DNA of 46,171 bases from Spirochaetales bacterium (lineage in GTDB: Bacteria; Spirochaetota; Spirochaetia; DSM-27196; SLST01): NCBI GenBank assembly GCA_019038705.1, contig JAHOYX010000098.1, positions 1 to 46,171 of the forward strand, in the 5' to 3' direction. This document shows, one piece after another, positions 3,095 through 27,796 of this stretch. Below the pieces are notes generated by a model. The model had not been told where the DNA came from. It worked only from the letters and a program-made list of their open reading frames with translations, and did no database searches. The translations under genes and the position numbers were made by a program. The first letter of the stretch is position 1, and the number at the start of each line of letters is the position of its first letter.

Positions 3095-5974
3095 TCACGA
3101 CTCCGGCTGCCGGGTGGGTGCCCCACCCACAGATGAGCCGACAACGTCGGCAAAATGGATCAAGAGCGTCTTGACCTGATGAGGATCGATTGTGACCTGG
3201 AATCGCGTTCCGTCCTGAATGTCTACAGACTTCTGCGAGCTGTCCCTTTCCATGGGGTCTATCTCGTAGACCTCGCTGATCGCCCGTGCGGCGGTGACCA
3301 GAGCCGTGCAACCCTCCCCCGAACACTCAAAGAGCCTCAGGATTGTTCCACCGCCGTCCTCGGCCTCCTTGAACGCACTCAACTGGACGTTGGTCGGTTC
3401 AATGGAAAGGAACGTTCGCTCCGCCGGCCAGGGTCCCTCCCGTGGTTCAGTTCTCATGGGAATGAGTGGGCAGTTGAAGCTCGTCGCCACAGATGAGGCG
3501 TGCTCCGGTGACCACTGTGTCGAAGGGTAAACGGAGTAGGTAATCCGGTGTCGCCCCATCTCGGGCAGAGGATCAGGCTCGTAGGAACTCCGCAGGAGAC
3601 ACATGGCAATTCCATCGTCGTCTCCGCTGTAGCTATACGTGTGGGAGTTCACAATCGTAATTCCGGCGCCGTCTTCTTCGACCACCGCCCCCCATCGTTG
3701 CGCCGGGACTTCCTTCCCATCGGCATCCCGTCTGATGCTCCCGAAGGGAGCATCGTACACGTGTCGTGGATTGTCCAGGCTGACCGGGAAGTAAACCTTC
3801 AATGTGGGGACTCCGGTGTCTCTCCCCCCTTTTTCGTGCCAAACCACGTTCAGGGTGAAGTCCAGTTCGGGCAGATCCCGGTGAAGGATGATGTCAAGAT
3901 CGAAACTGGAGTCCAGGAAGGTGTTGTGACACCGAACCATGGCTCGTGACGGCCCGGACTCGACGACTTCCAGGGTGCCTCCGGAAGCAAGGGCCCACGC
4001 CTCCGTCAGTCTTCCCTTAATCCAGGCAGACATTCGGTGCGGCTCTTCGCGCTCGAAGTGGAGTTGCCCAAAATTCTTCTTTCCAGGGACGAGTTCACGG
4101 GATGTGCGTTTGTCAAAGAGGCTCACGACGCTGGAAGACTTTGCGTCTATCTCAACCCGAAGGAATGCGTTCTCCATCCATGCCCCGGTCGTCGTGTGAC
4201 CCGCCAGGGCACCGCTCGTCCGACATTCCTCCGGCAGCCGGGCGACTTCGTCTATCCAGAATGTCTTGTAGCCGAGCGGCGGGACCTCTTTGGCGGTGAA
4301 GACAATCTGAGCAAACTGGTGTCCGTACTCCATGTCAAAGCGGAGCATCGGGGGCTGAGGTATGTCATCGTAGAACGTGTTGTAGAACCCCTTCCTTCCG
4401 TAGAAGCTGTCCCCCTTCGCATTCTTCTCCCAGAGGCTCGCCTGCGTCTCCATGATGTGCGCGGCGACTGCGCCCCCCTGACCATCTCTCACGACGAGGT
4501 CGTGGGTGCCCGAAACGTCGTAGAGAACCAGCTCCACCTTGTCGGTTCTGGGTTGCGACGTGGGGTTGAACACGACCACCGGAATGCCACGTTCCCCGCC
4601 GGTGTTGACGTTGACCGCCATCTGCCGAACGGCGCGATCAATGACTGTAGACGTCCTGGCCTCGATCTCCAGATGCTGACCCTGAGCGTGTTCGTTGGAC
4701 TCCCTGATGCCCGCACCCGGCAGGATGTCGTGGAACTGGTTGAACATCGCCATCTTCCAGCTCTGCTCCAGTTCGTCCTTTGGATAGACGAAGTTGGCGA
4801 ACGTCCCGGCAATTGAGGCGATTGATTCGGAGATGAACAGCTGGTTTTCGGCTCTCCGATTGGAGTGCTTGATTCTGCTCTGCGAGGAGTAGCAGCCGCG
4901 GTGGACGAAGTTGAGTTCTCCTCGTACCTCGGGCAGATCTCCGGCTTCTTCTTCAACCAGCTTGAAGTACTCCTGCACCGTGCTGCAGCGTGTGGCAGGA
5001 AATATCGGCCACTTCCCCATCTCTTCTATCTTTCTGATGTCGTCCCGGGACGGGCCGCCCCCGTGGTTGCCGACGCCGTAGACAATCATGAATTGCCTGA
5101 GGCCTGTTGCGGTCTCATGGCGCAGGACATAGGCGACATCACTGCTGGCGACGTGTTTGTCCACAAACGGGAATCTGTCGTTGTTCCAGACGAGCAACCG
5201 TGAATCATCCTCGCCGACCCACCAGAAGAGCCACGGCATCTTTCCGGGCTTCCCCTCACAGATATCGGGTTGCATGTCACTTCCGGGACGGCGGAGGTAG
5301 TAGTACCGTATGCCCGCCTGGCGCAGGATGCTGGGAGTCGCTAATGGATGGCCAAATGTGTCGGTCGCCCAATCAACCTGGACGGTCTCCGGGTCTATCC
5401 CCAGGTGCTCTCTCATGTACTTCTTCGCACAGAGAATCTGGCGCACCTGGGATTCGCCGGAGCTCATGTTCTTGTCGGCTTCAACCCACGAGTTGGCGGT
5501 GACCTCCCACTGGCCGCCGGCGATCTTCTCTTTGATCCGCTCAAAGAGCTCGGGACTGAAGCTGCGGGCAATCTCGTAGGTTAGGATCTGGCTCTGAGAG
5601 AAGCGGTAGTCAGGGAACTCGTCCATCAGATCAACCATGGTGGCAAAGGTTCGATAGCACGACTTGACTGTTTCGGGCCACGACCAGAGCCAATCCATGT
5701 CTATGTGAGCGTGGGCGACGTAATTCAGGCAGTAGTTCTTTGCTTCCGGCCCGATCGGCTTCAGGATCTCCTCGACATGGTCAACGATCGTCTGGATGCT
5801 CTGGGCTTGATCCCTTCGCGTCCTGGACGCGTTTTCGGCCTGGTCAACAAGCGCGAGCCAGTCATCTCTGTCCATATGCAGGGCAAGCTCGCGAGCGAAA
5901 TCGATTTGGCTGAGGAGCCTGTCAGAAGCGGCGCTTTCCCGCTCTATCTTCTCGCACACTGGGTCCAACTCCAT
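3095..5974 (-). CDS. GH38 alpha-mannosidase
   Basis: The 959-aa product has the HAHIDMDWLW metal-site motif and FNQFHDILPG, both GH38 hallmarks. No signal peptide is evident. Confidence 0.9.
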   Translation of the reverse strand: MELDPVCEKIERESAASDRLLSQIDFARELALHMDRDDWLALVDQAENASRTRRDQAQSIQTIVDHVEEILKPIGPEAKNYCLNYVAHAHIDMDWLWSWPETVKSCYRTFATMVDLMDEFPDYRFSQSQILTYEIARSFSPELFERIKEKIAGGQWEVTANSWVEADKNMSSGESQVRQILCAKKYMREHLGIDPETVQVDWATDTFGHPLATPSILRQAGIRYYYLRRPGSDMQPDICEGKPGKMPWLFWWVGEDDSRLLVWNNDRFPFVDKHVASSDVAYVLRHETATGLRQFMIVYGVGNHGGGPSRDDIRKIEEMGKWPIFPATRCSTVQEYFKLVEEEAGDLPEVRGELNFVHRGCYSSQSRIKHSNRRAENQLFISESIASIAGTFANFVYPKDELEQSWKMAMFNQFHDILPGAGIRESNEHAQGQHLEIEARTSTVIDRAVRQMAVNVNTGGERGIPVVVFNPTSQPRTDKVELVLYDVSGTHDLVVRDGQGGAVAAHIMETQASLWEKNAKGDSFYGRKGFYNTFYDDIPQPPMLRFDMEYGHQFAQIVFTAKEVPPLGYKTFWIDEVARLPEECRTSGALAGHTTTGAWMENAFLRVEIDAKSSSVVSLFDKRTSRELVPGKKNFGQLHFEREEPHRMSAWIKGRLTEAWALASGGTLEVVESGPSRAMVRCHNTFLDSSFDLDIILHRDLPELDFTLNVVWHEKGGRDTGVPTLKVYFPVSLDNPRHVYDAPFGSIRRDADGKEVPAQRWGAVVEEDGAGITIVNSHTYSYSGDDDGIAMCLLRSSYEPDPLPEMGRHRITYSVYPSTQWSPEHASSVATSFNCPLIPMRTEPREGPWPAERTFLSIEPTNVQLSAFKEAEDGGGTILRLFECSGEGCTALVTAARAISEVYEIDPMERDSSQKSVDIQDGTRFQVTIDPHQVKTLLIHFADVVGSSVGGAPTRQPES

Positions 5975-6000: not shown

Positions 6001-6840
6001 TTATCCTTTCACACCCGCGAGATTGAACGACTTGATGAGATGCCTGCGAGCATAGAGAACAAGAACGATAATGGGGGCGATGTAGACAATAGCGAGAGCC
6101 GCCAGGAATCCATAGTCGATGTACTGAGAGGTTATATACGCTCTGAAGATGGCGACGCCCAGTGGCGTCTTGTTGTCTGACGTGATGAAGAGAACCGGCG
6201 TGAGAAACGTGCCCCAGGAGCCCCTGAAGGTGAGGATGGCAACCGCCGCGGCTGCCGGCGCCGAGAGAGGAAACACAACCCGGGTCAGTGATGTCCAGCG
6301 CGTTCCGCCGTCAATCCAGACGGCCTCCTCCAACTCCGGCTGAATGGTGTCGAAGAAGGTCTTCATGACCCAGAGCGCAATCGGCAAACTGCCCGACGCG
6401 TCAACCAGGATGACCGCGAAGTAGGTGTCCATCAGACCGAGGTTGCTGATGAGTTTGAAGAGCGGGACAAGATATGTCGTATTCGGTATCACACGGATGA
6501 GAATGATGAAATACAGGAATGGCGTCTTCCACCAGAATTTCAGCCGCGACAGCATGTAGCCGCCAAGGGTGCTCGCGACAAGCACAAGGACTACCGTACC
6601 TACCGCGTATATCAGGCTGTTGCCCATCCAGAGAAACCCTTGTTCCTGGACGAAGAAGTTGACGAAGTTCTGAAAGGTGAACTCCACCGGGGTCAGCCAG
6701 AGCTGCGGTTTTGTGTCAAACGCCGAGAGAATCAGCCAGTAGAAGGGCACCAGGCTGAAGACGACCAGGAACACGACAAATCCGTATCTGGAGATCTGCG
6801 TCGCGGCCGGTGTGCTGACTCTGCGTCCTCGTCGCTTCAT
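6001..6840 (-). CDS. Carbohydrate ABC transporter permease (MalG-like)
   Basis: It is a multi-TM protein with the EAA-loop region ELEEAVWIDGGTRWTSLTRVVFPLSAP. Its start overlaps the upstream permease stop by 4 nt. Confidence 0.85.
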   Translation of the reverse strand: MKRRGRRVSTPAATQISRYGFVVFLVVFSLVPFYWLILSAFDTKPQLWLTPVEFTFQNFVNFFVQEQGFLWMGNSLIYAVGTVVLVLVASTLGGYMLSRLKFWWKTPFLYFIILIRVIPNTTYLVPLFKLISNLGLMDTYFAVILVDASGSLPIALWVMKTFFDTIQPELEEAVWIDGGTRWTSLTRVVFPLSAPAAAAVAILTFRGSWGTFLTPVLFITSDNKTPLGVAIFRAYITSQYIDYGFLAALAIVYIAPIIVLVLYARRHLIKSFNLAGVKG

Positions 6841-7727
6841 GTCTTTACCCTTAGTAGTTTGAGGTACGCGACGCCGAGAATCGTGCTCAGTATGAGCATG
6901 ACCACGCCGACGGCCGCGCCGTAGCCGAGCTGGAAATGGGCGAACGACTCCTTGTATATGTAGACCGATATGACTTCAGTTGACCGGGCGGGTCCACCTC
7001 CTGTGAGGAAGTAGACAAAACCAAACGTACCGAGCGAACCGACCGTGGTGAGTAGCAGGAACAAGAGGATCGTCGGCGCCAGTATCGGCAGGGTGATGTA
7101 GAGGAACAACTTGAGCCCGGCTGCGCCGTCCACGGTTGCAGCCTCCCGAACATCGTTACCGATTGCCTCGAAACCCGCGGCGAGCAGAATGAAGGCCATG
7201 CCTATCCCCCGCCAGACATTGATCAGGGAGATGGCTATGATCGGGTACTCCCTCGTCCAGTTGATCGGGTCGGCCCCGAAGACAGAAGTAATAAGATTGG
7301 CAATTCCCGTTTCATTCGGGACCAGAATACTGGCCCACATGAATGCGGCCGCCGTCTCCGGAACCGCCATCGTCATCATGATTGCGGCAGTCGGCAGCCA
7401 GCGCAGTTTGAGAGATTGACTCCGAAGTACTCCGGCGGCGCCCAGGCCGATGAAAAGCTGGCCGAGCCATGCGGAGAGGACGAGAAACATCAACGTCACA
7501 AACACCGAATTGTAGAAGTTCGCGTCGGAGAACATGTCGCTGAAGTTCAAGAGGCCTATGAATTGCGGATCGATGGAGCCGCTGCCTATCAACTCCTCGT
7601 TGGTCAAGGCCAGGCGGAACGCGTCAACCGTGGGGATGAGGAAGACGAGAAGCAGGAGAATCGCCGGCAGGAGAAACAGATAGATAGGCAGGTTTGATCG
7701 GTGCAGTTTTGATCGTCTGATGCTCAC
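6837..7727 (-). CDS. Carbohydrate ABC transporter permease (MalF-like)
   Basis: It is a multi-TM protein with the EAA-loop region DVREAATVDGAAGLKLFLYITLPIL. Confidence 0.85.
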   Translation of the reverse strand: MSIRRSKLHRSNLPIYLFLLPAILLLLVFLIPTVDAFRLALTNEELIGSGSIDPQFIGLLNFSDMFSDANFYNSVFVTLMFLVLSAWLGQLFIGLGAAGVLRSQSLKLRWLPTAAIMMTMAVPETAAAFMWASILVPNETGIANLITSVFGADPINWTREYPIIAISLINVWRGIGMAFILLAAGFEAIGNDVREAATVDGAAGLKLFLYITLPILAPTILLFLLLTTVGSLGTFGFVYFLTGGGPARSTEVISVYIYKESFAHFQLGYGAAVGVVMLILSTILGVAYLKLLRVKT

Positions 7728-7760
7728 GATGTCTCCCTCGCTTGGTCTTTGTGTAGCAAA

Positions 7761-7794
7761 GCGGGAGGAAGCGTCGTGCGATGCTCCCTCCCGC
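7761..7794 (-). other. Intercistronic stem-loop between the binding-protein and permease genes
   Basis: GCGGGAGG (7761-7768) pairs with CCTCCCGC (7787-7794) around an 18-nt loop. The position matches the mRNA-stabilising hairpins common after ABC binding-protein genes. Confidence 0.35.
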
Positions 7795-7823
7795 GTGTAG
7801 TGTGAACGGTAGCTACATGCCTA

Positions 7824-9173
7824 TCAGTCTAGCGGCAGCAGAACCATTCCCTCCGGGCTATGACGGAACGCCTGTCGGATCATGTTCGTGTAGGCCGTGA
7901 GGGCCTCCTCTGCGCTGAATCCGAGCAGGAGACGCTCGGTCGCCGTGGCAACCGCCAACTGCACTGCAGATTCCTTTTCAAACGGTGGGAACGTAACCAG
8001 AGTGTCGAGGCGATCCTCCTCCCTCATGAGGTTCGGATTTGCCGCATAGTCCGGGTAAGCATCGCGTGCGTCCCTCCGAGCGGCGATTCCACCGACCTCG
8101 AGCGCCATCCGCCCTATCGCTTCTGCGCTTACCAGGTACTTGAACACCTCAAACGCCAGGTCCGGGTCATCGGTGGCAGCATCGATGCAGTAATTGAAAC
8201 CCATGTTACCGTAGATGTAGGGCTCACCTTCACCGTAGACGGTCGGGAACGCCCAGGTCCCCACGACCTCGTTGATGTCGGGCATCGGCGTGGCGCCGCC
8301 CGGGCCGTAGTCAAAACGCCATCCCCAGGTGCCCTGGGTCTCCATCGCCAGGACTCCCTCCGGGAACTGCTGGTACTTCGGGATCACGTGCGGCAACGGT
8401 GCGAGCATTGAATCGATGAAGAACAGGTTGTTCGCCACCACGGCCTCATAGAGTTGGAATACCTCGAGCAGACCCTTGCTCTGCGCCACAACACGCCCCT
8501 GGTCATCCACGATGTAGGGCGTGCTCGAGCCCATCAGAAACTGCCTGAAGCCCTCGCCCCAGGGACCGCCGCCCCAGATGTTACCCATCGGGAGCATAAG
8601 GCCGTACTCGGCGCCGCTATTGTCCCTGACTTGGACGGCCTTCTCGACCAACTCTTGCCAGGTCTGCGGCTGATCTTCAGACACTCCCGCTTCCTCCAGG
8701 CGGTCTCGACGATACCAGATAGAGAGGCCGGACCCGGCAATCGGCAGTCCGTAGATCCGTCCACCGCCGATTTCCAGTGACCGTTGCTGCGAAATCTCGT
8801 AGAACTGATCCCATCCGTCCCAGGCCTTCACCTGGTCGGTGATGTCAAGAACAAGGTCGCTGGCCACGAGCATGGGGTCAATCTGGCCGTCGGTGCGGAA
8901 GATGTCGAAACCCTCGCCGCCCTGCAGCGCCGTGAGCAGCTTCGTGATGTAGTCCGCCCCTACATTCGGCCCCTCCACGATCGTGATTTCGACGCCCAGT
9001 TCCGCCTCAATCTTCGGCACGATGGCCCGAACCGCCTCGATCCTCAGAGGTTGGCCCTCGTAGATGGTGATTTCGCCACCAGCTGCGGCCCCTTCTGCTC
9101 CACCCCGAGCGAAGAGAAATGCCGGCATGAGTAGCAAGACCAGCATTGTCAGAACGAAGATTCTCGTTTTCAT
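7824..9173 (-). CDS. ABC transporter extracellular sugar-binding protein (CUT1 family)
   Basis: It has the signal peptide MKTRIFVLTMLVLLLMPAFLFA, and GGAGG lies 5 nt upstream of the ATG at 9171-9173. The track start at 9185 falls inside that SD. No ABC ATPase gene is in the locus. Confidence 0.85.
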   Translation of the reverse strand: MKTRIFVLTMLVLLLMPAFLFARGGAEGAAAGGEITIYEGQPLRIEAVRAIVPKIEAELGVEITIVEGPNVGADYITKLLTALQGGEGFDIFRTDGQIDPMLVASDLVLDITDQVKAWDGWDQFYEISQQRSLEIGGGRIYGLPIAGSGLSIWYRRDRLEEAGVSEDQPQTWQELVEKAVQVRDNSGAEYGLMLPMGNIWGGGPWGEGFRQFLMGSSTPYIVDDQGRVVAQSKGLLEVFQLYEAVVANNLFFIDSMLAPLPHVIPKYQQFPEGVLAMETQGTWGWRFDYGPGGATPMPDINEVVGTWAFPTVYGEGEPYIYGNMGFNYCIDAATDDPDLAFEVFKYLVSAEAIGRMALEVGGIAARRDARDAYPDYAANPNLMREEDRLDTLVTFPPFEKESAVQLAVATATERLLLGFSAEEALTAYTNMIRQAFRHSPEGMVLLPLD

Positions 9174-9302
9174 AGATACCTCCATGGTACTAAGATTCCT
9201 GTATCGTGCACATGTCCGGAAGCCAATCTCCCGGTAACGTGACGAAACCCTGATTTGGATGAGACGGTCCGTGGGCAGGGGACATCTGGATCACGGCGAA
9301 CC

Positions 9303-11918
9303 TCAGCCACCGGTCTCCGGTCCGATTACCACCAGGTCCGCGTCGAGTGCCGGAACCGTCTCCAACTCTGATCCCCGGAGCGTAAAACTGTGCTCGGTAT
9401 TGTCGATCTCCAGCCTCCGTGTGGTGGCGATCGAACTCCGGCCGGCCGCGCCGTGGGGACCATGACCGATGTGGCCATTCACCGGCGCGTACGCTTCCAC
9501 CCTGATAATTGGCGTGACCCGGTTCTCTGTTCGGGTTCGCGCCTCTGTGTACGGAATGACGGCGCCGGCCCGCACGTAGATGGGAATGGACTCGAGCGTG
9601 ACGGGGACGGCAATCCACCGGCCGTCCGAATCGATACGCTCGTTCGTCCAGAAATCGTACCAGGAACCGGCCGGCAGGTACACGTCACGGACCTTCGCCT
9701 GGGTAAGTGGGCGCAATACCGGCGCCACCAGCAGATCGCTTCCAAGAAGGTACTCGTCCTCGATGGTCCACGCGACGTAGTCATCGGGGTACGCGAGAAG
9801 CAACGATCGAATGACTGGAAGCCCGTCGCGTGAAGCTTCCTGAGCCGTGGACAGGAGGTATGGCAGCAGGCTGTAGCGCAGCTCGGCAAACCGGCGGAAA
9901 ATCCGAGCGGCATCGGAACCGAAACTCCACGGCTCGCGGCTGTTGGTGTTTCCGTTCCCGTGCGTCCGCGCGTGCGAACTCAGCAACCCGAACTGCGCCC
10001 AGCGGATATAGAGTTCCTCGCTTGGCCTTCCGATGAACCCGCCGATGTCGTGCGAGTAGAACGGGATGCCGGACAGCCCGGTGCTGATCGCGCCTTTCAC
10101 TGTCCCGGCAAGCCCGGCCCAGGAACACTGGCCGTCTCCTCCCCAGTGCACGGGGTACCGCTGACTGCCTGCAGTGCCGCTTCTGGCCCAGACAATCCAT
10201 TCCCCCGTCTCATCATGGATTGCGCGGGCAATGCAAGCGTTATAGAAGAGCGAGTAGATGTTGTGTACGCGCTTCCCCGGCAGGGCATGGTAGTTTCCCT
10301 CATCCGGGATGCCCTCGCCATAGTCCACCTTGATTGACGACACGCCGGATCGGACCAGCCCACGGATCTGGGCCGCATACCACTCCGCGGCATCCGGATT
10401 CGTGAAGTCGATAATCGTCTCGTCCGTCCGGCTGCCGACCGTATCTTCAGGGTATCTATACGGCAAACCGTCCGAACCGGTTACGAGGTAGGCCCGGTCG
10501 AGAGCCTCCCGGTAGTTTGCATTGTTCTCCCGGGGAGGAATGAAGTTGTACTGCCACAGACACACCCTGATACCCCGCTCACGAAGGGCCCGCATATGGC
10601 CCTCCGGATCGGGAAAGCGATCCGGCGAGAAGCGCAAATCGCAGTTGTAGGTCTCCGTGAACCACGCAGGGTCCAGGTTGACGACGTCAAACGGTAGATG
10701 TTCCTTATCCGCCTCGGCTGCAATCTGGTCCACCATATCCCAGGAGGTGTAGCTGTTCCGGCTCAGCCAGAGCCCGAAACTCCACACAGGGGGGACCGGC
10801 GCCAGGCCGGTCAGCAGACCATACCGCTTCAGGATTGTTGACGGATCCGGCCCGTGGATGACGAAGTAGTCGAGGATCTCGTCTTCAACAACCACCCCGA
10901 GTGTCGTGAGGTCCTGTGTGCCGATCTCCCATTCGGGATTGGCGGAAGAGTTGACGAACAGACCGTATCCCGCGGACGAGATATAGAACGGTACGTTTAT
11001 GTAGGTTCTTCCGCTGCTTGAGCCGATCGCATCCTTGTTTCGGAAATCAACGGCCCGACCGTTCCTCAGTACACCATCAAAGCGCTCACCCAGTCCGACG
11101 ATGCGCTCCCGTTCGCGAAGCTCAAAACTGTCGAAGAAGGCCCTGCGATCGTTCCACTGCGCCTCACCGGCATCGAAAACATCACTCGTGAAGAGGTCGC
11201 GCTTCTTCTGCGCCCAGATTTCGGTGTCGGCCGAGTCCACCAATGAGAGACGGAACGGGTCCAGGCGAACACGAATCCCGGCTCCGTCACCACCAGCGTC
11301 CATGACGATGGCCGCGGCGCCTTCCCTGGTTCCCATCACTTCGGCCACTGATGCGCCCAGCGCCGGATCCGGGTCTGCAACAAGCATGCGGGAATGTGCC
11401 GGCAGATGGGAGTAGGGGTCCTGACTCGGATCTCGACCCAGACGAACCCGGGTAACACCGGGCGCGAACGCCTCAATCAACGCCCCGCTGGTGTGCTCAT
11501 GCCCACCGCCGGAGAACTGGTGCATCTGAGTCTCGTGCGTCTGGACAAAACGATTCTCGTATGTTTGGCCGGACAGATCGAGAAGTACTCCGCGCGGTGT
11601 AGGGGTCCAGCTGGTTACCGTTTCAAGTCGCAGGTGCGTCGCGCCGTCTGCGGTCCGGAACTCGGACGGCCCGCGGTAGATCCGGGCCATGGTCCGAGCC
11701 TCGCCGGAGCCGTCCAGATCGACGCGCTCGGGAAAATCTTTTGCAAGATCCCAGTCCCCACCTTCCACGTGTCCTACCTTGGTCAATTTGACGTACGTAC
11801 GACACTCATTGTACGCGGCATATTGCGAGCCGTCAAGAAGAAATGTCGTTCTTGCGGGAATCTCATCTTTACACTGGCCCACATGAATGACAGAATCGCG
11901 TAGCATGGTGCCACCCAC
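9303..11918 (-). CDS. GH31 glycosidase, YicI-like (alpha-xylosidase/alpha-glucosidase type)
   Basis: KVDYGEGIP (nucleophile region), HWGGDG and YSHDIGGF resemble YicI-type GH31. The start is uncertain among GTG 11918, ATG 11906 and ATG 11690. Confidence 0.8.
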   Translation of the reverse strand: MGGTMLRDSVIHVGQCKDEIPARTTFLLDGSQYAAYNECRTYVKLTKVGHVEGGDWDLAKDFPERVDLDGSGEARTMARIYRGPSEFRTADGATHLRLETVTSWTPTPRGVLLDLSGQTYENRFVQTHETQMHQFSGGGHEHTSGALIEAFAPGVTRVRLGRDPSQDPYSHLPAHSRMLVADPDPALGASVAEVMGTREGAAAIVMDAGGDGAGIRVRLDPFRLSLVDSADTEIWAQKKRDLFTSDVFDAGEAQWNDRRAFFDSFELRERERIVGLGERFDGVLRNGRAVDFRNKDAIGSSSGRTYINVPFYISSAGYGLFVNSSANPEWEIGTQDLTTLGVVVEDEILDYFVIHGPDPSTILKRYGLLTGLAPVPPVWSFGLWLSRNSYTSWDMVDQIAAEADKEHLPFDVVNLDPAWFTETYNCDLRFSPDRFPDPEGHMRALRERGIRVCLWQYNFIPPRENNANYREALDRAYLVTGSDGLPYRYPEDTVGSRTDETIIDFTNPDAAEWYAAQIRGLVRSGVSSIKVDYGEGIPDEGNYHALPGKRVHNIYSLFYNACIARAIHDETGEWIVWARSGTAGSQRYPVHWGGDGQCSWAGLAGTVKGAISTGLSGIPFYSHDIGGFIGRPSEELYIRWAQFGLLSSHARTHGNGNTNSREPWSFGSDAARIFRRFAELRYSLLPYLLSTAQEASRDGLPVIRSLLLAYPDDYVAWTIEDEYLLGSDLLVAPVLRPLTQAKVRDVYLPAGSWYDFWTNERIDSDGRWIAVPVTLESIPIYVRAGAVIPYTEARTRTENRVTPIIRVEAYAPVNGHIGHGPHGAAGRSSIATTRRLEIDNTEHSFTLRGSELETVPALDADLVVIGPETGG

Positions 11919-13020
11919 TCAGCAGGAGATTGCACGTAAGCTCGGGCTCTCGCTCAAGACAGTTCAGCGTGCATTCAACCAACCAGAGACCGTTTCGCCA
12001 ATCGTCAGGGATCGGGTCTACGAATTTGCGGCACGAATCAACTACAGTCCCAATCGAGGCGCCCGCGCGCTTCAGGGCAGCAGACGCCACCGTGTGGCAC
12101 TGTTCTCGAGGAGCACGCCAAGCTTCTTCTGGAACGATGTCGCAATCGGAGCCAGGATCGCAGCCCGGCAGTTATCACAGCTGGGGCTTGAGTTCCACTA
12201 CCGTCGGGTATCCAGCTATGACTCGTGTATTCGAGCGCTCAGGACGGTCGTCCGCGACGGCGTAGATTGTATTGGGCTCGTCAATCACACCGGTATGCAA
12301 ATGGAGCGAATCCTGGAGTGGATCCGGAGGCGCGATCTGCCGTTTGCCGCATTCAACATAGATTTTGAGGGGGTTGAGCGTCTCTGCTACCTGGGAATCG
12401 ATTATGAGCGCCAGGGCATGCTCGCAGGTGAGGTCATTGCCAAACTTCTGCCTGACGGGGGTGCACTCGGGATCCTCACGTCACCCGAAACACCCGGTTC
12501 GTTCCTGCCTGGCGCGGACATTCAGAACCGACGTCATCGCGGATTGCAGGCGGCGCTTGAGGAGTTTCCGAGTATCCGGAGAGAGGAGATACCAATCCGA
12601 ACGAAGGGGGTTGAAGCTGACCCTGACAAGGTGCTCCGCGCAATCCAGAGCATTGCCGGCCGGAATCGAATAGTCATCTGCATTCCGTCTATTCCCAGCT
12701 ACCTCCTCCGGTACCTGCATGACACGCCGCCGGACAAACGACCGGGGCTGATTGGCTTTGACCTCTCGCCGCAGACTACCAGCCTGTTGGAGCATGGTCT
12801 GATCACGGCCGAGATCTACCAGAACCCGTCTCTCCAGGGATACGGAATCGTGAAACTGCTGGATACGTTCCTGGAAACGGGCCGCAAGCCATCCAGAGAC
12901 AGATACCTCATCACTCCCCAGGTGATCTTCAGCAGCAACGTGGACCAGCGCAATGTCTTTGACATCATCGCTGAGATTTCCGAGCCATCGCACGCATGGA
13001 CCGGCGCTCTTGCTGAATAG
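11887..13020 (+). CDS. LacI-family transcriptional regulator
   Basis: It has the HTH QQEIARKLGLSLKTVQRAFNQPETVSPIVRDRVYEFAARINYSPNRGARAL followed by a periplasmic-binding-protein-like sugar domain. An alternative start is the ATG at 11905. Confidence 0.85.
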   Translation: MTESRSMVPPTQQEIARKLGLSLKTVQRAFNQPETVSPIVRDRVYEFAARINYSPNRGARALQGSRRHRVALFSRSTPSFFWNDVAIGARIAARQLSQLGLEFHYRRVSSYDSCIRALRTVVRDGVDCIGLVNHTGMQMERILEWIRRRDLPFAAFNIDFEGVERLCYLGIDYERQGMLAGEVIAKLLPDGGALGILTSPETPGSFLPGADIQNRRHRGLQAALEEFPSIRREEIPIRTKGVEADPDKVLRAIQSIAGRNRIVICIPSIPSYLLRYLHDTPPDKRPGLIGFDLSPQTTSLLEHGLITAEIYQNPSLQGYGIVKLLDTFLETGRKPSRDRYLITPQVIFSSNVDQRNVFDIIAEISEPSHAWTGALAE

Positions 13021-13063: not shown

Positions 13064-15220
13064 ATGAGCACTACTAAACCCGACTTCGATGGCCTGATTG
13101 GCGAGATCCGTGCGACCAAACTGCAGTTCAACGACCAGAAGGTCGAGGGATGGGGACACTACGACAGCGACGACCACGGTTGGATACCGCTCGAGCGACC
13201 TGAGTTCGAACCGGAGACCGATCCTGAGACGGGTCTCTGCTCGGGGCCCGCGCTGATTGGTCGCAGCTTCAGGTCATGGCTGGCGGTACATCCGGTGTAT
13301 ATCCACCCTTCCAGCGCGTTGGCCGGAGCATGGGTATCTGTTGCCCCTCGAGTCGGGGAATGGACCGATACACCGGATGAATTCGAACCCATCTGGGAGA
13401 AGTACAACATACGCCAGAGCGGCGCCCAGGGGATGAATCACTTCGGGCCCGACATGAATCTGGGTCTTACTCTTGGCTTCGGTGGATTACTCGACAAGAT
13501 TCGGCACTTCCGAAGAATCAACGCACCTGAAGACAGTTCTTTCTATGACGGGGAAGAGAATGTTGTCCTCGGGATGCAGGAGTTTGTACGAAGGCATGCA
13601 ACCGAGGCGAGCCGTCTCGAGGCGCAGTGCCAGGACCCGGGCCGACGACAGAACTATCGCGCAATTGCTGAAACGAACGAATGGCTCGTGAGCAACCCGC
13701 CGAGGACGCTGCGAGAAGCGGTTCAGTTCCTCGCATGGTTCCAAACCTTCGATCGCATGTACTTCATGGGCGGCGCCATGCAGCAGATTGACACGTTGCT
13801 CTTGCCGTTCTACGAGAACGACATCGCCGCTGGCATTATCTCCGACGACGACGAGGTCGTCTGGTACCTGGTGAGCCTGTTGTTTAATGACACCCATTAT
13901 CACCAGATATGCGGACCCTCTCCGATCGACGGACACGACGTCACCAATCCAATCTCCTTCGCGATACTCGACGCAATGCACAAGCTGGGAATCCCATCGA
14001 ATGTTGCAATCCGGCTCCACGACGGTATTGACGATGAGCTGATGCGTAGAGCTGTCGAGTACCTTTTTGAGGACGGGACCGGCGTGAGCTTCTCGTGTTC
14101 CGGTGGTCTGGACGCGGGCTACGCCAGAAATGGATATCCATTGGAAGTGGCTCGTATGCGGGCGAAAGTTGGATGCAATTGGACCGCCCTTCCGGGCACC
14201 GAGTACTGCCTCCAGGACGTGACCAGGGTGTGCCTGGTGGCTCCTTTCCTCATCGCTTTCTACGAGATGATTGACGACGCCACGTGCACCAATTCCCTGG
14301 AGAATCTATGGGAGAAGTACGCTGGTCATCTTGAGATATGCGTGGAGACAATCAAGAAAGGATTCGACTGGCACCACGAGTACAAGAAGTCGAATGTTCC
14401 GGAGATGATCTTGAATCTCTTCTGCCATGGCCCAATAGAGCGAGGTCTGGACATCAGCGCTGGTGGAGTTGACATATGCAATTTCACCATCGACGGCGTT
14501 GGTCTGGCCACGATAGCAGACTCACTTGGGGCGATTGAGCAACGAGTAGTTGACGAAGGCCGGCTGGAGTGGGAAGACCTCGCACAGTTGCTACGATCGG
14601 ATTACGCCGGCCGAGAAAACGAGCGGCTGATGCTCAAGAACATAGCTCGCTACGGGTCTGGAGCTTCTCGCGGCGACAAGTGGGCGGATCGCCTTTCGGC
14701 ACTGTTCACCGATCTGGTGAAGCGCAGTCCAACACCAAAGCACCAGTTCAATGTTATCCCTGGTTTCTTCTCCCATGGAGTTGTTCGCATGCTTGGTGAG
14801 CATCTCGGGGCGACACCGAATGGGAGACACGCCTACGCAGAGATTTCCCACAGTGCCGATCCGGATCCCGGATTCGACGCCGACGGAACCGGAGCTCCCA
14901 CTGCCAAGAGTATTGCGGTCGCCCGGGTGCAACCTGGCTGGGGAAACTCGGCGCCGCTTCAGATAGACATGGACAGTATGCTGGCGAAGGAACTTGGCGG
15001 TGTCGAGATCATCACGGCGTACCTGAAAGCTCATGATCAGATGGGGGGAACGCTGATCAATATCAACGTAATTTCCAAAGAGAAACTCGTTGCGGCGCAT
15101 GAGAATCCTGACTTGTTCCCGGATCTGGTTGTCCGTGTAACCGGCTATAGCGCCTTTTTCAAATCGCTCTCCGAGGAGTACCGGCAACAGGTGGTGGATC
15201 GGCTCCTCTCCAAGAGCTAG
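13064..15220 (+). CDS. Glycyl-radical enzyme, PFL2-like but divergent and short (718 aa)
   Basis: The C-terminal glycyl-radical motif is VVRVTGYSAFF (Gly codon 15143-15145). The candidate thiyl Cys sits in VGCNW (codon 14174-14176), 323 residues upstream. ATPNGR matches the ATPDGR region of GREs. I chose the start at ATG 13064, after the LacI stop. Confidence 0.85.
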   Translation: MSTTKPDFDGLIGEIRATKLQFNDQKVEGWGHYDSDDHGWIPLERPEFEPETDPETGLCSGPALIGRSFRSWLAVHPVYIHPSSALAGAWVSVAPRVGEWTDTPDEFEPIWEKYNIRQSGAQGMNHFGPDMNLGLTLGFGGLLDKIRHFRRINAPEDSSFYDGEENVVLGMQEFVRRHATEASRLEAQCQDPGRRQNYRAIAETNEWLVSNPPRTLREAVQFLAWFQTFDRMYFMGGAMQQIDTLLLPFYENDIAAGIISDDDEVVWYLVSLLFNDTHYHQICGPSPIDGHDVTNPISFAILDAMHKLGIPSNVAIRLHDGIDDELMRRAVEYLFEDGTGVSFSCSGGLDAGYARNGYPLEVARMRAKVGCNWTALPGTEYCLQDVTRVCLVAPFLIAFYEMIDDATCTNSLENLWEKYAGHLEICVETIKKGFDWHHEYKKSNVPEMILNLFCHGPIERGLDISAGGVDICNFTIDGVGLATIADSLGAIEQRVVDEGRLEWEDLAQLLRSDYAGRENERLMLKNIARYGSGASRGDKWADRLSALFTDLVKRSPTPKHQFNVIPGFFSHGVVRMLGEHLGATPNGRHAYAEISHSADPDPGFDADGTGAPTAKSIAVARVQPGWGNSAPLQIDMDSMLAKELGGVEIITAYLKAHDQMGGTLININVISKEKLVAAHENPDLFPDLVVRVTGYSAFFKSLSEEYRQQVVDRLLSKS

Positions 15221-15235
15221 ACGACAAGGAGCCAA

Positions 15236-15310
15236 ATGCGGAATCAGATACGACAACTCAAGGTGAGGTGCACCTGGTGCGCCAGGCGCATCTGGATCCG
15301 GTGTGGATAG
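15236..15310 (+). CDS. Candidate 24-aa basic Cys-containing micro-ORF
   Basis: AAGGAG (15226-15231) lies 4 nt upstream of the ATG. The peptide is MRNQIRQLKVRCTWCARRIWIRCG. It lies between the GRE and activase genes and has no known family. Confidence 0.15.
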   Translation: MRNQIRQLKVRCTWCARRIWIRCG

Positions 15311-15348
15311 GGGCTGGCCGAACGGACAGGCTCCAGAGACGGACATGA

Positions 15349-16266
15349 ATGAGCATGCACACGACTGAAGAGAGAACCGGCATGGTTTTCAATATCCAGC
15401 GATTCTCGGTCCATGACGGCCCGGGCATTCGAACCACGGTGTTCATGAAAGGGTGCAATCTCCATTGCTTCTGGTGCCACAATCCAGAGAGCATTTCACC
15501 GGTGCAGGAGGTGCAGCTCTTCCCGGACAAGTGCATTGGGTGCGGGAATTGCTTTGAAGTGTGTCCGGTCCACGCACATCGGATGGAAGAAGACCATCGC
15601 GTGCTGGATCGCGAACTCTGCGAACGCTGCGGTAAATGCGTTGATGAATGCTATGCAGGAGCCCTGAAGATGGCCGGCGAGCTCAGGACCGTCTCGGATG
15701 TGATGAGTGTTGTGGAGCGGGACCGAGCCTTCTATGAGACTTCAGAGGGTGGTGTTACATACTCCGGAGGCGAACCGCTGCTTTCGGTGCCCTTCCTGGC
15801 CGAGTTGCTCAGATCGAGCAAGGAGCGTTCGATTCACACGGCCGTCGATACGGCGCTCAACGTCAGTTGGTCCAGCATTGAGAAGATCATTCCCCTGGCG
15901 GACCTGTTCCTCGTGGACTTCAAACACATCGATTCCCGGGCACATCGTGAGGCGGTGGGAGTGGACAACTCGCGGATTCTGGAAAACCTGGAGAAGCTGG
16001 CCCGACACCACGAGCATCTGTGGGTCCGGATACCTGTCATTCCGGGTGTCAACGCGAATCCCGACGTGCTCGCGCGAATGGCCGAGTTCCTGACCAGACT
16101 TGAACGACTCGAGCGCCTTGAGTTGCTCGCGTTCCATGGTCTGGCCGACGCGAAGTACGAGAGTCTTGGACAGGTGTCTTCCGCCTCGGACCTTCCCACC
16201 CCGTCCGACGAAGATCTGGCGAACTTCAGACAGATCTTTCTCAATTATGATCTACCCGTGAAATAG
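15349..16266 (+). CDS. Glycyl-radical enzyme activating enzyme (radical SAM)
   Basis: It has FNIQRFSVHDGPGIRTTVFMKGCNLHCFWCHN (CX3CX2C) and two ferredoxin-like motifs, CIGCGNCFEVCP and CERCGKCVDECY. The SAM-binding motif YSGGEPLL is present. The start could instead be the ATG at 15382. Confidence 0.9.
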   Translation: MSMHTTEERTGMVFNIQRFSVHDGPGIRTTVFMKGCNLHCFWCHNPESISPVQEVQLFPDKCIGCGNCFEVCPVHAHRMEEDHRVLDRELCERCGKCVDECYAGALKMAGELRTVSDVMSVVERDRAFYETSEGGVTYSGGEPLLSVPFLAELLRSSKERSIHTAVDTALNVSWSSIEKIIPLADLFLVDFKHIDSRAHREAVGVDNSRILENLEKLARHHEHLWVRIPVIPGVNANPDVLARMAEFLTRLERLERLELLAFHGLADAKYESLGQVSSASDLPTPSDEDLANFRQIFLNYDLPVK

Positions 16267-16300: not shown

Positions 16301-18430
16301 CTACAATGACTCGATGTAATCGCTGAGCGCTTCGCGCGCTTCCTGCTCCACCTGGCGCGCATCAATCAGCTCGCGGTTGAGCACCTCCAGTCGATCCTCC
16401 TGGTTCGTGAAAGTTTCCAGGTAACGCTGGTAGATATCCGTTTCCGTATCGAGCACCTCCATGTTGGAGCGGATTCGCTGCTGCTCGCGGTAGATCGTGT
16501 TGATCTCCGCCTCTATCGCGCGTCGTTCGCTGTCGCGCGTCCGGATGACCCGCTGCAGCTCACGGATGCGACGCAATTGTCCGGCCGACTCGGCGTCAAT
16601 GGTCTGCTGGGAGAGGTAGAAGGCGATCTGGTCGTCATTGAGGCTCACAAGTCCGTAGGTCTGAGATCGAATGTACTCCTCCACGATCGGGGCGGTCACG
16701 GTGCCCGTTGGCGGCGCGTCAATCTGGAATCGCCACTGGCTCGCGGTCTCGTCCATCGGCTCGATTTGCCCGATGAGTTCCCAGCCGGATCGCTTGGGGT
16801 GGAAGAAGAAGTAGGGCACACCGTCCTCCGACTCGCTAATCCTGTCAAACACATACTCGGTTGTCTGTTCCTGTCTGAGGGTGGTTTCCAGGATCCCACG
16901 GGTCACACGAACGCGGATGATCTCCTGCGGGATCGACTGGCCCCGGACCAGGACGGTGGTCTTCAAATCGATTGCGTAGCTCAGCAGGCGTTCTTCGCCC
17001 GGCACGAGGTCCGGCAGACGGGCGTCACCGGCGTACCGGGCACCGTCAAAGATGGTGATGGGCCCGGCAAGAAGCTGGGAGCCGGTTTCGTTGTTCATCC
17101 GCAGGCCGGACAGGGGTCGATTTCCGAGTGTTGACGGGTCGTAGATGGCAAGCCGCTCAATGGGGATGGTCGTGGAGACGATCGGGATGAGCGCGGCCCC
17201 GCGTCGGGGGATAGTGACGCCGTGGCTGATGGTGAAGGCAGCGGCCTCCCCGGCCAGGACTGCCGCCGAGACGCCCTGACTGAGATCAATTGGCTCGGGT
17301 GCCGGCTCGGCATAGTAGTCGTAGTCGTCGGCGAAGGCACCGGAGAGGGCCTCCTCCATGGCGTACTCGGGAGCCATTGATCGAGCCGCGGACGGGGCGG
17401 ACATGGACGGCGCCTGCGCGATTCCCCGGTCATACGACGGCGGTGCAACGGACACACCGGTGGTGGGCTGTACCCGTGGTCGCTGGTTGTAGACGGGCGA
17501 GTAGAGGTCCATGACGAAGGAGATGGGTCGCTCGGCAATGAGGCTCAATCGAACATCATCCCAATCGATCTCACCCGTGTTCTCCACAATCGCCCAGCCC
17601 TGGAGCTGTGCGGTCCCGTCATCCTGCAGAACGAGTCGATAGGTCGACTTCCAGACGGGCACCGCCCTGATGTAACCGATTCTGACTCGGCGGCGCCCCT
17701 CTCCCGCAAACTGGATGGTGATGCTCTTGCGGTCCTGTTGGCGGTTTTCGGCGATGACCGCCAGCGCGCTGTCCAATTCCTGCTGGAGCGCGGGGTTGGT
17801 GAAACGCAGTGACCGGATTGACCCAAGGACAACCTGTCGGAACTCGCCGCCAACGAGCAGGTTGAGCAGCGTTTCCCGGCGGGTTCCCTGACCTTCGGGG
17901 ACGGTCTTGTACTCGATCCCGAATATCGTGCCGGTGACCGAAACCGGACCGTCAACGTTCACCTGCTCGCCACGCGCCCGGATGAGGAGCGTTTCAAGAG
18001 CCGGGTTGTCTCCGATTGGAAGCGAGAAACTGTTGAGGATCCGCTGAAGGGGGTCCTGGGACGGGTATGCGACAACCTCGATCCGGCCACCGTCCAGGTC
18101 CTGGAGCACGAGACTCTTCAAGAGATCGTTGATGTCCCCGGATGAGACCGTCAGCGTCACCGTCTCGTCACCCTCAACCACGCCGTCGTGCTGGAAGTAG
18201 CCGACTCCGGTCGTGAAGAGGCTGACAGCAGTGACCGGCAGGCGCTGGTCGCCGGCCGCGGAGAGGCCGAGAACACGGGCTCCCGCGTTTGACCCCGAAG
18301 AGTCCTGCGCCACGCCTGTCGCCGACACCGAAACCAGTCCGGCCACCACGAGCAGCACGACAATCAACAATCGCCGGTTCTCGAGAACCGTTCTTTGCGT
18401 CGTTTCTCGAATCGATCCTGGATTTCGCAT
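16301..18430 (-). CDS. Large secreted or membrane-anchored protein, DUF4139-like, with a C-terminal coiled coil
   Basis: It has the N-terminal anchor RRLLIVVLLVVAGLVSVSATG. The core (WKSTYRLVL...LQGWAIVENTGEIDWDDVRLSLIA) resembles DUF4139 as I recall it. The C-terminus is heptad-rich. I chose the start at ATG 18430. Confidence 0.4.
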   Translation of the reverse strand: MRNPGSIRETTQRTVLENRRLLIVVLLVVAGLVSVSATGVAQDSSGSNAGARVLGLSAAGDQRLPVTAVSLFTTGVGYFQHDGVVEGDETVTLTVSSGDINDLLKSLVLQDLDGGRIEVVAYPSQDPLQRILNSFSLPIGDNPALETLLIRARGEQVNVDGPVSVTGTIFGIEYKTVPEGQGTRRETLLNLLVGGEFRQVVLGSIRSLRFTNPALQQELDSALAVIAENRQQDRKSITIQFAGEGRRRVRIGYIRAVPVWKSTYRLVLQDDGTAQLQGWAIVENTGEIDWDDVRLSLIAERPISFVMDLYSPVYNQRPRVQPTTGVSVAPPSYDRGIAQAPSMSAPSAARSMAPEYAMEEALSGAFADDYDYYAEPAPEPIDLSQGVSAAVLAGEAAAFTISHGVTIPRRGAALIPIVSTTIPIERLAIYDPSTLGNRPLSGLRMNNETGSQLLAGPITIFDGARYAGDARLPDLVPGEERLLSYAIDLKTTVLVRGQSIPQEIIRVRVTRGILETTLRQEQTTEYVFDRISESEDGVPYFFFHPKRSGWELIGQIEPMDETASQWRFQIDAPPTGTVTAPIVEEYIRSQTYGLVSLNDDQIAFYLSQQTIDAESAGQLRRIRELQRVIRTRDSERRAIEAEINTIYREQQRIRSNMEVLDTETDIYQRYLETFTNQEDRLEVLNRELIDARQVEQEAREALSDYIESL

Positions 18431-18499
18431 GCAGGTACCCCCGATCAGTACATTACCGCTATGTCGGCGACGACGCAATCAGAATAGGCACCGGCCGCC

Positions 18500-26864: not shown

Positions 26865-26905
26865 GTGACCCTCCAACTGGGCAGAGAGGATACTGCGGAT
26901 TCAGA

Positions 26906-27796
26906 ATGGATGATATCTCTTTTTGTGACTTCGCAGCTACTCCGATTCTGTATATATTACATTTTGTGATAATCGAACAAGAGAACCACTACGGATCGCC
27001 CGATCCGAGCCGCCCGGTCACCGTGCTGTACGCCGGCAGCGAGCAGTGTGCCCCGGCGCACCGGTGGGAGGGTGTGCGCGATCACTATCTTCTGCACTAT
27101 GTGACAAGCGGCACAGGATACGTGTGGCGACGGGGACGACGCGAGAGCCTCTATCCCGGCGGCTGCTTCTTCTTCGGTCCGATGGAGCGTCTTCGATACG
27201 AAGCCGACGGCAATCGGCCGTGGGCCTACATGTGGGTGGGGTTCGCCGGAACGCATGCCGCGAGTCTCTTTGGCGAGTACGTGCGTGTGACCGGCTCCGA
27301 GGTTGCCCAACTGCCCCTGCTGGACTGCCTGAGGCAGCATCTGGTTGGCATCCTCGATGCGCTCCGTCGCCGCACCGGCGGTTCCACGACGCGCGCCGCA
27401 GGACTGCTCGAGGTCTTTGTGGGGTCCGCAATTGATCTGGCAGTAGGCGGGAAGCCGGGCGCCCGCGAGACCGTGGATCCCATCTCCGCGGCGGTTGAGT
27501 TCATTGATCTGAACTTCCAGCGAAGAATGAGGGTGGCAGACGTTGCGACCCGGGTTGGAGTGGATCGCAGCCACCTGAGTCGTCTCTTTCACCGCCGTCG
27601 TGGCGTGACGATCCAGGAGTACATGATCACCCGTCGCATGAACCGTGCCAGGGATCTCCTGAGACAGACAACACTCCCGATGCGTGCCGTGGCGGCTTCG
27701 GTGGGTTACGACAGCTATGTGTCGTTTGAACGACGCTTCGCCGATCGTGTCGGCATGCCGCCCACCGCCTGGCGGGAGCAATCGCGCGACGCGTGA
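26906..27796 (+). CDS. AraC-family transcriptional regulator (cupin plus HTH)
   Basis: It has an N-terminal cupin (HYLLHYVTSGTGYV) and a C-terminal AraC HTH (VATRVGVDRSHLSRLFHRRRGVTIQEY). It is divergent from melA. The start is uncertain: ATG 26906 or GTG 26966, which lies after an AT-rich stretch. Confidence 0.8.
   Translation: MDDISFCDFAATPILYILHFVIIEQENHYGSPDPSRPVTVLYAGSEQCAPAHRWEGVRDHYLLHYVTSGTGYVWRRGRRESLYPGGCFFFGPMERLRYEADGNRPWAYMWVGFAGTHAASLFGEYVRVTGSEVAQLPLLDCLRQHLVGILDALRRRTGGSTTRAAGLLEVFVGSAIDLAVGGKPGARETVDPISAAVEFIDLNFQRRMRVADVATRVGVDRSHLSRLFHRRRGVTIQEYMITRRMNRARDLLRQTTLPMRAVAASVGYDSYVSFERRFADRVGMPPTAWREQSRDA

Follow-up and report, generated by a model that had tools for sequence, protein, structure and literature searches.

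A glycyl radical enzyme with a GCNW cysteine loop and its activase in a carbohydrate locus of a Spirochaetales bacterium

A glycyl radical enzyme gene followed by an activase gene

The DNA analysed here, referred to below as the window, is a stretch of 46,171 nucleotides from a Spirochaetales bacterium (GCA_019038705.1, contig JAHOYX010000098.1). Between positions 13,064 and 16,266 it carries a gene for a glycyl radical enzyme (GRE) followed by a gene for a GRE-activating radical-SAM enzyme (hereafter activase), beside genes for the uptake and hydrolysis of sugars. The GRE gene (13064-15220, + strand) encodes a protein of 718 amino acids (aa) matching PF02901, the pyruvate formate-lyase (PFL)-like barrel (1.1e-70), and PF01228, Gly_radical (4.5e-10), which places it in the PFL-like GRE superfamily as both the barrel and the C-terminal glycyl radical domain are present. 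The Gly loop, RVTGYSAFF (15134-15160, + strand), has the RVxG[FWY] form of the superfamily and contains the putative radical site, Gly694. The Cys loop, KVGCNWTALPG (14165-14197, + strand), contains the putative thiyl-radical residue, Cys371, 323 residues ahead of Gly694, followed by Asn372 and Trp373 in place of Val and Glu. An alternative, longer reading starting at ATG 12953 would run into the upstream gene; because homologues of 718-724 aa span 98-100% of the 718-aa form, we assigned the start to ATG 13064.

The activase gene (15349-16266, + strand) scored 358 bits with TIGR02494, for a cut-off of 174. Its product has the radical-SAM motif CX3CX2C and two ferredoxin-type auxiliary cluster motifs, CX2CX2CX3C, and is thus of the three-cluster eliminase type and not of the PflA type. 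These data indicate that the gene pair encodes a bona fide GRE and its cognate activase, with all the parts predicted to be required for radical installation. The initial annotation, made from the letters and translations, had proposed both a glycyl-radical tail spaced from an upstream cysteine and a three-cluster activase; both proposals hold.

The AlphaFold2 model of the protein has the GRE fold (pLDDT 83.5, pTM 0.85), the Cys loop (pLDDT <50) and residues 595-614 being its poorly modelled parts. The model matched every eliminase and isomerase structure to a similar degree (TM ~0.75, with 17-20% identity in the structure-based alignment), and Foldseek ranked PflD and propanediol dehydratase first, PflD being on top. 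The protein is about 65-130 residues shorter than the solved eliminases; alignments begin at about residue 115-125 of the GRE against 155-165 of the solved chains, in line with the shortened N-terminus noticed from the sequence.

The Cys loop carries a tryptophan in place of the Cys+2 glutamate

The Cys loop was placed by single-sequence (phmmer) and family-profile searches against all chains of the PDB. In three independent alignments to solved GREs, GCNW fell without gaps on the GCVE or GCTE of PflD, HplG, glycerol dehydratase, propanediol dehydratase and HpsG, anchored by the G-C pair and by a P-G pair five residues on. Cys371 therefore corresponds by alignment to Cys433 of glycerol dehydratase and likewise to the catalytic cysteines of the four other enzymes, and the GRE has no alternative cysteine in a GCVE or CC context. 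As GCNW aligns on GCVE, the Glu found two residues after the catalytic Cys in characterised eliminases and isomerases (Cys+2) is Trp here, and the intervening Val is Asn. The CXE signature of the 1,2-eliminases and isomerases is thus replaced by C-N-W, in the window protein and in essentially all of 120 clusters of its family.

According to a GRE review of June 2026, CXE is kept in all six C-O eliminases, in CutC, in the three C-S lyases and in the three isomerases, its Glu being hydrogen-bonded to the substrate, and two cysteines are found only in PFL and TdcE. A Glu at the Cys+2 position is also used by HPAD and IAD; catalysis by CutC and IslA depends on it, and in PflD/YbiW it deprotonates the C2-OH of the substrate.

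Other active-site residues of glycerol dehydratase were traced on the same alignments. Two are retained: His164, which sits on the first barrel strand and acts as general acid, corresponds to His126, and Asp447 corresponds to Asp385, both being invariant in the GCNW family. In contrast, Glu435 and Val434 are replaced by Trp373 and Asn372, Ser282 by Ala238, Tyr339 by Ser/His280 and Tyr640 by Phe569. The ND motif (Asn407-Asp408, in PAYYNDE) is also replaced, PAYYNDE aligning on VSFSCSG with Ser-Cys345-Ser. Two conserved acidic residues, Glu380 and Glu447, have non-acidic counterparts in glycerol dehydratase and PflD and are, by their conservation, candidates for a relocated acid/base. The identification of GCNW as the catalytic loop and the loss of the ND motif, both suspected in the initial annotation, are thus borne out by comparison with solved enzymes.

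The GRE lies far from the characterised families

None of the curated NCBIfam cut-offs was passed by the GRE. Its best match, the glycerol dehydratase/PFL2 model TIGR01774, reached 210 bits for a cut-off of 678, followed by 184 against 1109 for NF007437, a formate C-acetyltransferase equivalog model that we take to be of the PflD type. The HypD, CutC and PFL (TIGR01255) models gave 153 against 1100, 138 against 1050 and 58 against 994, respectively, and scores with the HpsG and HpfG equivalog models were also far under the cut-offs. In the PDB, the best single-sequence match was PflD (164 bits, compared to 950-1360 bits for members of the GRE's own family) and the best match of the family profile was glycerol dehydratase (2.9e-65). 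That the GRE does not cluster with any characterised family is evident from these scores. The closest solved proteins are all eliminases or isomerases.

With PflD/YbiW (PDB 8YJO, 8ID0 and 8ID7), which isomerise 1,5-anhydromannitol-6-phosphate and 1,5-anhydroglucitol-6-phosphate, the window GRE has in common the PFL-like fold, a three-cluster-type activase, a sugar-operon setting with carbohydrate substrates (presumed for the window GRE) and a PG-x-x-Y-x-L-x-D segment after the Cys loop. However, the loop reads CVE in PflD/YbiW and CNW here, identity is only ~20%, the window GRE is ~60 residues shorter, and the phosphotransferase system of the PflD/YbiW setting has its counterpart here in an ABC transporter and glycoside hydrolases. 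The Gly loop and a TPxGR motif are common to the GRE and to glycerol dehydratase (PDB 1R8W/1R9D), propanediol dehydratase, CutC, HypD, IslA and HpsG; the equivalents of His164 and Asp447 are retained, whereas the other glycerol dehydratase positions listed above have all changed. In contrast to the loci of GRE 1,2-eliminases, the window locus has no microcompartment or aldehyde-processing genes among its open reading frames (ORFs) of at least 150 aa, the size range to which the gene absences in the window refer. PflB and TdcE have the superfamily, the glycyl radical domain and the dependence on an activase in common with the window GRE, but the latter has a single Cys in its loop and an activase of another type, and the alignment with PFL covers only its C-terminal 140 residues (1e-12).

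The GCNW family and the wider GC-x-W clade

Scanning one genome for each GTDB species yielded 530 loci of the GCNW family, and the best 80 of these 530 were all from metagenome-assembled genomes (MAGs). The family comprises at least 120 clusters at 57-80% identity, with an almost unvarying loop, AKVGCNWTALP. The closest relatives (77-80% identity) are found in Spirochaetaceae and Spirochaetales MAGs; the other hosts are mostly Chloroflexota/Anaerolineae, Latescibacterota, Poribacteria, Bacillota, Armatimonadota and Gemmatimonadota. Relatives are named 'pyruvate formate lyase family protein' or 'formate C-acetyltransferase' at source. In an alignment of 32 GCNW sequences (mean column identity 67%), the predicted barrel strands carry the invariant polar motifs GAMNH126xGPD130, FN275DT277H278Y279xQ281, E380Y381CxQ384D385 and PGxF569S570H571, and three additional cysteines, C345, C382 and C390, are conserved within the family.

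Among 1.8 billion representatives, searched exhaustively with HMMER, a wider clade was found at 26-46% identity; its loops have the form GC[N/H/Q/F/G]W...PG.EY...D. Proteins with the canonical GCVE surfaced only at or below 31% identity. Across 27 members of this clade, Gly370, Cys371, Trp373, Asp385, Glu447, Gly587, Arg588 and Gly694 are invariant, and His126, Glu380, Tyr381 and Ser570 nearly so. The sister families with GCHW, GCQW or GCFW loops (~700-760 aa; e.g., P0282 of Anaerocolumna xylanovorans) also lie in sugar-linked loci, sometimes in one operon with a GCNW GRE and with a single activase for both. They differ from the GCNW family at Cys+1, which is His, Gln, Phe or Gly instead of Asn, in the changed NDTHY and FSH strand motifs and in the absence of the GCNW-specific cysteines; some of them have short activases devoid of the ferredoxin domain.

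Some unusual members were also noted. Sequences binned to 'Candidatus Methanoperedens' and to a Euryarchaeota MAG (L025, such labels denoting the loci collected here, and protein P0101) are ~59% identical to bacterial ones and reflect either horizontal transfer into archaea or mis-binning. The GRE is split into two adjacent ORFs at L014 (4269-6419) and L060 (9372-11585), a frameshift or an assembly error and not a tandem duplication. In two loci (L018, 2226-4379, - strand; L079, 13144-15315, + strand), a third GRE type, with a canonical TCVE loop, a RIGGY Gly motif and 21-23% identity, is encoded no more than 10 kb from the GCNW GRE.

The window pair and many of its relatives lie among carbohydrate genes

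In the window, the GRE gene is preceded by a co-directional LacI-family regulator gene (11887-13020, + strand; helix-turn-helix and periplasmic-binding-protein (PBP) domains, PF00356 and PF13407), which stops 43 nt before the GRE start. Divergent from these genes is an operon on the - strand. Its first gene (9303-11918) encodes a glycoside hydrolase family 31 (GH31) glycosidase that is alpha-xylosidase-like (PF01055, 3e-82; 517 bits with the alpha-xylosidase model NF007940, for a cut-off of 606). It is followed by a sugar ABC transporter (6001-9185) made of a substrate-binding protein (SBP; 7824-9185, PF01547), which resembles oligosaccharide-binding proteins of the PDB, and two permeases (6837-7727 and 6001-6840, PF00528), and then by a GH38 alpha-mannosidase of the Ams1/cytosolic type (3095-5974; PF01074, PF07748 and PF09261; 1e-65 with Ams1-type alpha-mannosidases of the PDB). 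The arrangement initially described, a LacI regulator upstream of the GRE and a divergent GH31, ABC transporter and GH38 operon, agrees with these domain matches and coordinates. Among the window ORFs no shorter than 150 aa, the stated lack of aldehyde or alcohol dehydrogenases (propanediol or ethanolamine type), formate channel and sulfite reductase genes also stands, as does that of microcompartment shell genes; below this length, where shell proteins fall, ORFs were scanned only at the immediate locus. Among the called genes of the related loci examined, neither shell nor aldehyde-processing genes were found.

The neighbourhoods of relatives were compared by calling and clustering ORFs in 84 loci, recurrent clusters and operon members being annotated with Pfam and NCBIfam; precomputed Pfam labels were used for ten further places. 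Neighbours within 10 kb were counted in the 76 non-redundant loci with a called GRE. These counts are lower bounds: ORF calling was crude and failed to recover the GRE in 7 loci, and singleton clusters received no annotation. An adjacent activase gene was found in 38 of these 76 loci. Sugar ABC permeases are present in 18 (homologues of the window permeases in 17-18), SBPs in 11 and GH38 in 9 (9-10 related loci, in ~8 of which it lies in the same operon as the GRE). GFO/IDH/MocA genes occur in 10 loci, PBP-type regulators in at least 8, zinc-dependent alcohol dehydrogenases in 8, GlpK in 7, NagB-like genes in 5, UxuA-like, GH3/43 and GxGYxYP genes in 4 each and sulfatases in at least 4. As GH38 and GlpK are low-copy genes, their recurrence within ~18 flanking genes would exceed expectation. 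Overall, at least 33 of the 76 loci have a glycoside hydrolase, a sugar ABC component, a PBP-type regulator or a UxuA-like gene within 10 kb. Annotations seen at single loci include GH63 (MGH1-like), GH78, GH88, GH95, GH99, GH116 and ThuA/AP_endonuc_2.

Three arrangements recur. The operon regulator-GH38-SBP-permease-permease-activase-GRE is found in the Bacillota L067, L071 and L076, and L078, an unclassified MAG, has it too; incomplete forms of it are SBP-permease-permease-GRE-GH38 with the activase gene on the opposite strand (L001) and activase-GRE-GH38 in a Clostridiales MAG (L015). In the Bacillota L017, L022, L023 and L051, a regulator, an SBP and two permeases are divergent from activase-GRE, which is followed by GFO/IDH/MocA genes (one in L051, two in the three others); L017 also has an FGGY kinase gene and a class-II aldolase/epimerase-like gene nearby. 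The third arrangement, SBP-permease-permease-(GH42-like)-GCNW GRE-activase-GCHW GRE, is complete in L043 and partly present on the truncated contigs L045, L047 and L061. In these four Anaerolineae loci (L043, 9977-15448; L045, 4249-9748; L047, 354-5895; L061, 122-5604) the first GRE is of the GCNW and the second of the GCHW type (44-46% identity), with one activase for both; the upstream permeases and GH42-like gene are present in L043 and L045, and the SBP in L043 as well. Loci of sister families have comparable contents: LacI, two DUF1861 genes, an ABC transporter, a FAD oxidoreductase and a short, 241-aa activase lacking the ferredoxin domain in the cultured Lachnospiraceae A. xylanovorans (L091; 43% identity); DeoR, MPI, hexokinase, GPI, RPE, activase, GRE and an aldo-keto reductase in 'Ca. 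Gallacutalibacter', from chicken-gut bacteria (L092); and GH63 in L093. In a few loci, genes for an aldehyde:ferredoxin oxidoreductase, an aldo-keto reductase or a short-chain dehydrogenase/reductase adjoin the GRE, which may fit a carbonyl product.

These data indicate that the GCNW family is linked to carbohydrate catabolism, and that this link is real but varied. The carbohydrate context put forward in the initial annotation is thus retained; it is not universal, the partners vary, and neither GH31 nor the LacI gene of the window is conserved beside relatives, whose PBP-domain regulators are of the GntR and LacI types.

Genes with a URO-D-like domain (PF01208, with weak matches of the MtaA/CmuA type) were observed within 10 kb of the GRE in 15-17 of the ~76 loci, among them L002 (6307-7398), L025, L038, L044, L084 (16015-17010), L089 (2256-4660) and L093 (11513-12583), and also beside sister-family GREs. 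A role of these genes in corrinoid O-demethylation was considered and rejected, no B12-binding or corrinoid protein being seen in those loci.

Proposed reaction and alternative explanations

The window pair is best explained as a functional two-gene system belonging to a large, uncharacterised PFL-like clade dedicated to carbohydrate catabolism. We consider it probable that the GRE is functional and that its substrate derives from a carbohydrate, C-O cleavage being the most likely reaction. In the mechanism that we propose, the activase, which has the motifs for this reaction, would cleave S-adenosylmethionine and install a radical on Gly694; by alignment and fold, Gly694 and Cys371 are predicted to be placed as in all PFL-like GREs. 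The resulting thiyl radical would abstract a hydrogen from a cytoplasmic sugar, or from a sugar-derived polyol, anhydro-sugar or keto-sugar, obtained after ABC import and glycosidase action; in the window, GH38 and GH31 would release it and a LacI-type regulator would control expression. Aromatic residues commonly stack on pyranoses in sugar-binding sites, and we therefore propose that Trp373 and Asn372 adapt the loop to carbohydrate, Trp373 serving as a stacking platform. Hydroxyls would be bound by Asn372 together with His126, Asp130, Asn275, Thr277, His278, Tyr279, Gln281, Glu380, Tyr381, Gln384, Asp385, Ser570 and His571. A redox-neutral C-O cleavage is favoured because His126 and Asp385 are retained and because the fold and the activase are eliminase/isomerase-like; it could be a dehydration or an ether or ring opening, as in glycerol dehydratase and PflD/YbiW. 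His126 would remain the general acid, the base shifting from Cys+2 to Asp385, Glu380 or Glu447, and the product, a deoxy-keto or aldehyde sugar, would be passed to neighbouring oxidoreductases or kinases.

Several points weigh against this reading. Beyond the assignment to GRE and activase, it is drawn throughout from sequence and context. A standard elimination is disfavoured by the absence of a Glu at Cys+2, and the proposed replacement bases were chosen by conservation around a Cys loop that is modelled at low confidence. The neighbour counts are raw and uncorrected for chance; ~40% of the loci have no recognisable sugar gene among the recurrent clusters, and the neighbourhoods are heterogeneous, half of the loci having no adjacent activase and no single downstream enzyme being conserved. 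The broader proposal, that the GCNW family and the wider GC-x-W clade form a new functional class of GREs which transform a common carbohydrate-derived metabolite without the Cys+2 Glu, with Trp373 as platform and the base relocated or absent, is advanced tentatively and has less than an even chance of being correct. The initial annotation had gone further, to a chemistry outside the characterised families; this is a reasonable inference from the loss of the CXE Glu, but as His126 and Asp385 are kept, an eliminase-like reaction with a relocated base is also possible.

The GRE might alternatively be a counterpart of the PflD/YbiW 'anhydroglycolysis' isomerases acting on unphosphorylated substrates, cleaving the ether bond in the ring of a 1,5-anhydro-hexitol, or of a related anhydro- or deoxy-sugar, after ABC import, with phosphorylation and aldol cleavage to follow. 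PflD is indeed both the best single-sequence match in the PDB and the top structural match, and the PG-x-E-Y-C-L-Q-D that follows the Cys loop resembles the PGRTYGLHD of PflD. GFO/IDH/MocA proteins are the family of anhydrofructose reductases, and their genes lie 3' of activase-GRE in the second arrangement, with the kinase and aldolase/epimerase-like genes of L017; the hexokinase, isomerase and reductase genes of the sister locus L092 point the same way. However, the Glu that deprotonates the C2-OH in PflD/YbiW is Trp here, identity to PflD and the NF007437 score are low, no aldolase is conserved with the family, and the linkage to GH38 has no obvious tie to anhydro-hexitols, which makes this explanation unlikely. 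We are equally doubtful about a different class of radical reaction on sugars that dispenses with the Cys+2 base, such as C-H epimerisation with a second Cys as hydrogen donor, a reductive deoxygenation resembling that of ribonucleotide reductase, or the loss of a good leaving group adjacent to a ring carbon, be it sulfate, sulfonate, phosphate or methoxide. It would account for the lost Glu and for the Asn beside the catalytic Cys, and could employ the family-specific C345, C382 and C390; the sulfatases and the URO-D/MtaA-like genes nearby also speak for it, and the GCNW and GCHW paralogues sharing one activase in the Anaerolineae operons hint at consecutive radical steps. But these cysteines are not conserved in the wider clade, thioredoxin, formate or other reductant genes are not linked, the URO-D-like genes come without a corrinoid protein, and the dehydratase residues His126 and Asp385 are retained.

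A divergent glycerol or 1,2-diol dehydratase, acting on glycerol or a small diol derived from glycosyl-glycerols or deoxy-sugars, would agree with the best profile match in the PDB, with the conserved His164 and Asp447 equivalents, with the GlpK-type glycerol kinase genes of 7 loci and with GH38 and GH63 (MGH1-like) neighbours, which could hydrolyse glycosyl-glycerate or glycosyl-glycerol solutes. As the equivalents of Glu435, Ser282, Tyr339 and Tyr640 have all changed, TIGR01774 is far from its cut-off, and neither the window nor the related loci examined showed genes for 1,3-propanediol/propanol dehydrogenase, CoA-acylating aldehyde dehydrogenase or microcompartments near the GRE, we consider it very improbable. 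Finally, a pyruvate or ketoacid formate-lyase, the activity for which relatives are named in databases, can hardly be reconciled with a Cys loop that has no Cys-Cys pair, required in PFL/TdcE, with a TIGR01255 score of 58, with a PFL match limited to the C-terminus or with an activase of the eliminase type. The preferred reading remains an eliminase- or isomerase-like cleavage of a C-O bond in a sugar-derived substrate.

Significance

A GRE with its activase is a known kind of system, and the June 2026 review notes that uncharacterised GRE clades exist, whole clades being still without validation. A GCNW-loop GRE is absent from the characterised enzymes of that review, and no description of a GCNW or GC-x-W family was found in the full-text literature searched; a GH130 paper goes no further than citing the GRE sequence-similarity-network work, and an AARE paper does not treat the family. 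New here is a very large, highly conserved clade, linked to carbohydrates, whose members have an invariant Trp in place of the hallmark Cys+2 Glu. The GREs newly characterised so far have each uncovered a new anaerobic pathway, from choline to trimethylamine or for hydroxyproline, sulfonates and anhydro-sugars. As the present clade sits in glycan-utilisation loci of abundant uncultured anaerobes, solving its reaction would either extend the mechanistic rules of GREs or uncover a new route of sugar degradation, and would correct the metabolic reconstructions of the many MAGs in which it is mis-named pyruvate formate-lyase. If the clade is a new class, a so far unrecognised step of anaerobic sugar catabolism would be widespread among uncultured members of the Chloroflexota, Latescibacterota, Poribacteria, Bacillota and Spirochaetes. 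A sister enzyme is present in A. xylanovorans, which has been cultured, so that the question can be approached by experiment.

Other features of the window

The remaining genes of the window are housekeeping genes, together with a GH4 glycosidase gene divergent from an AraC-family regulator gene (25527-27796) and an AXE1 acetyl-xylan esterase gene (32962-33942), the tie of these carbohydrate genes to the GRE locus being not obvious. There are also a UxuA-like gene further along the + strand and, on the opposite strand, a gene of the epimerase family. Directly 3' of the activase gene and convergent with it, a 725-aa ORF (16301-18478, - strand) gave no Pfam match at E<=1e-4; its translation has an apparent N-terminal hydrophobic segment and a Glu/Arg/Gln-rich C-terminus. 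The GH31 protein was also considered as a sulfoquinovosidase; this was rejected, its alpha-xylosidase score of 517 bits being well above the 225 bits obtained with NF007746, a second alpha-glucosidase model, presumably of the YihQ/sulfoquinovosidase type, and GH31 not being conserved beside relatives.

Promoter and terminator scans of the locus performed no better than shuffles, and in the stretch from GH31 through LacI to the GRE, the search for a palindromic operator of the LacI type gave just one weak palindrome, inside the LacI gene. As listed, the GH31 (GTG 11918, - strand) and LacI (ATG 11887, + strand) ORFs share 32 nt in a head-to-head overlap. In this region, hexamers resembling promoters at 11836-11808 (- strand) and 11868-11896 (+ strand) suggest that the true starts are internal, at ATG 11905 for LacI and at a Met near 11693 for GH31.

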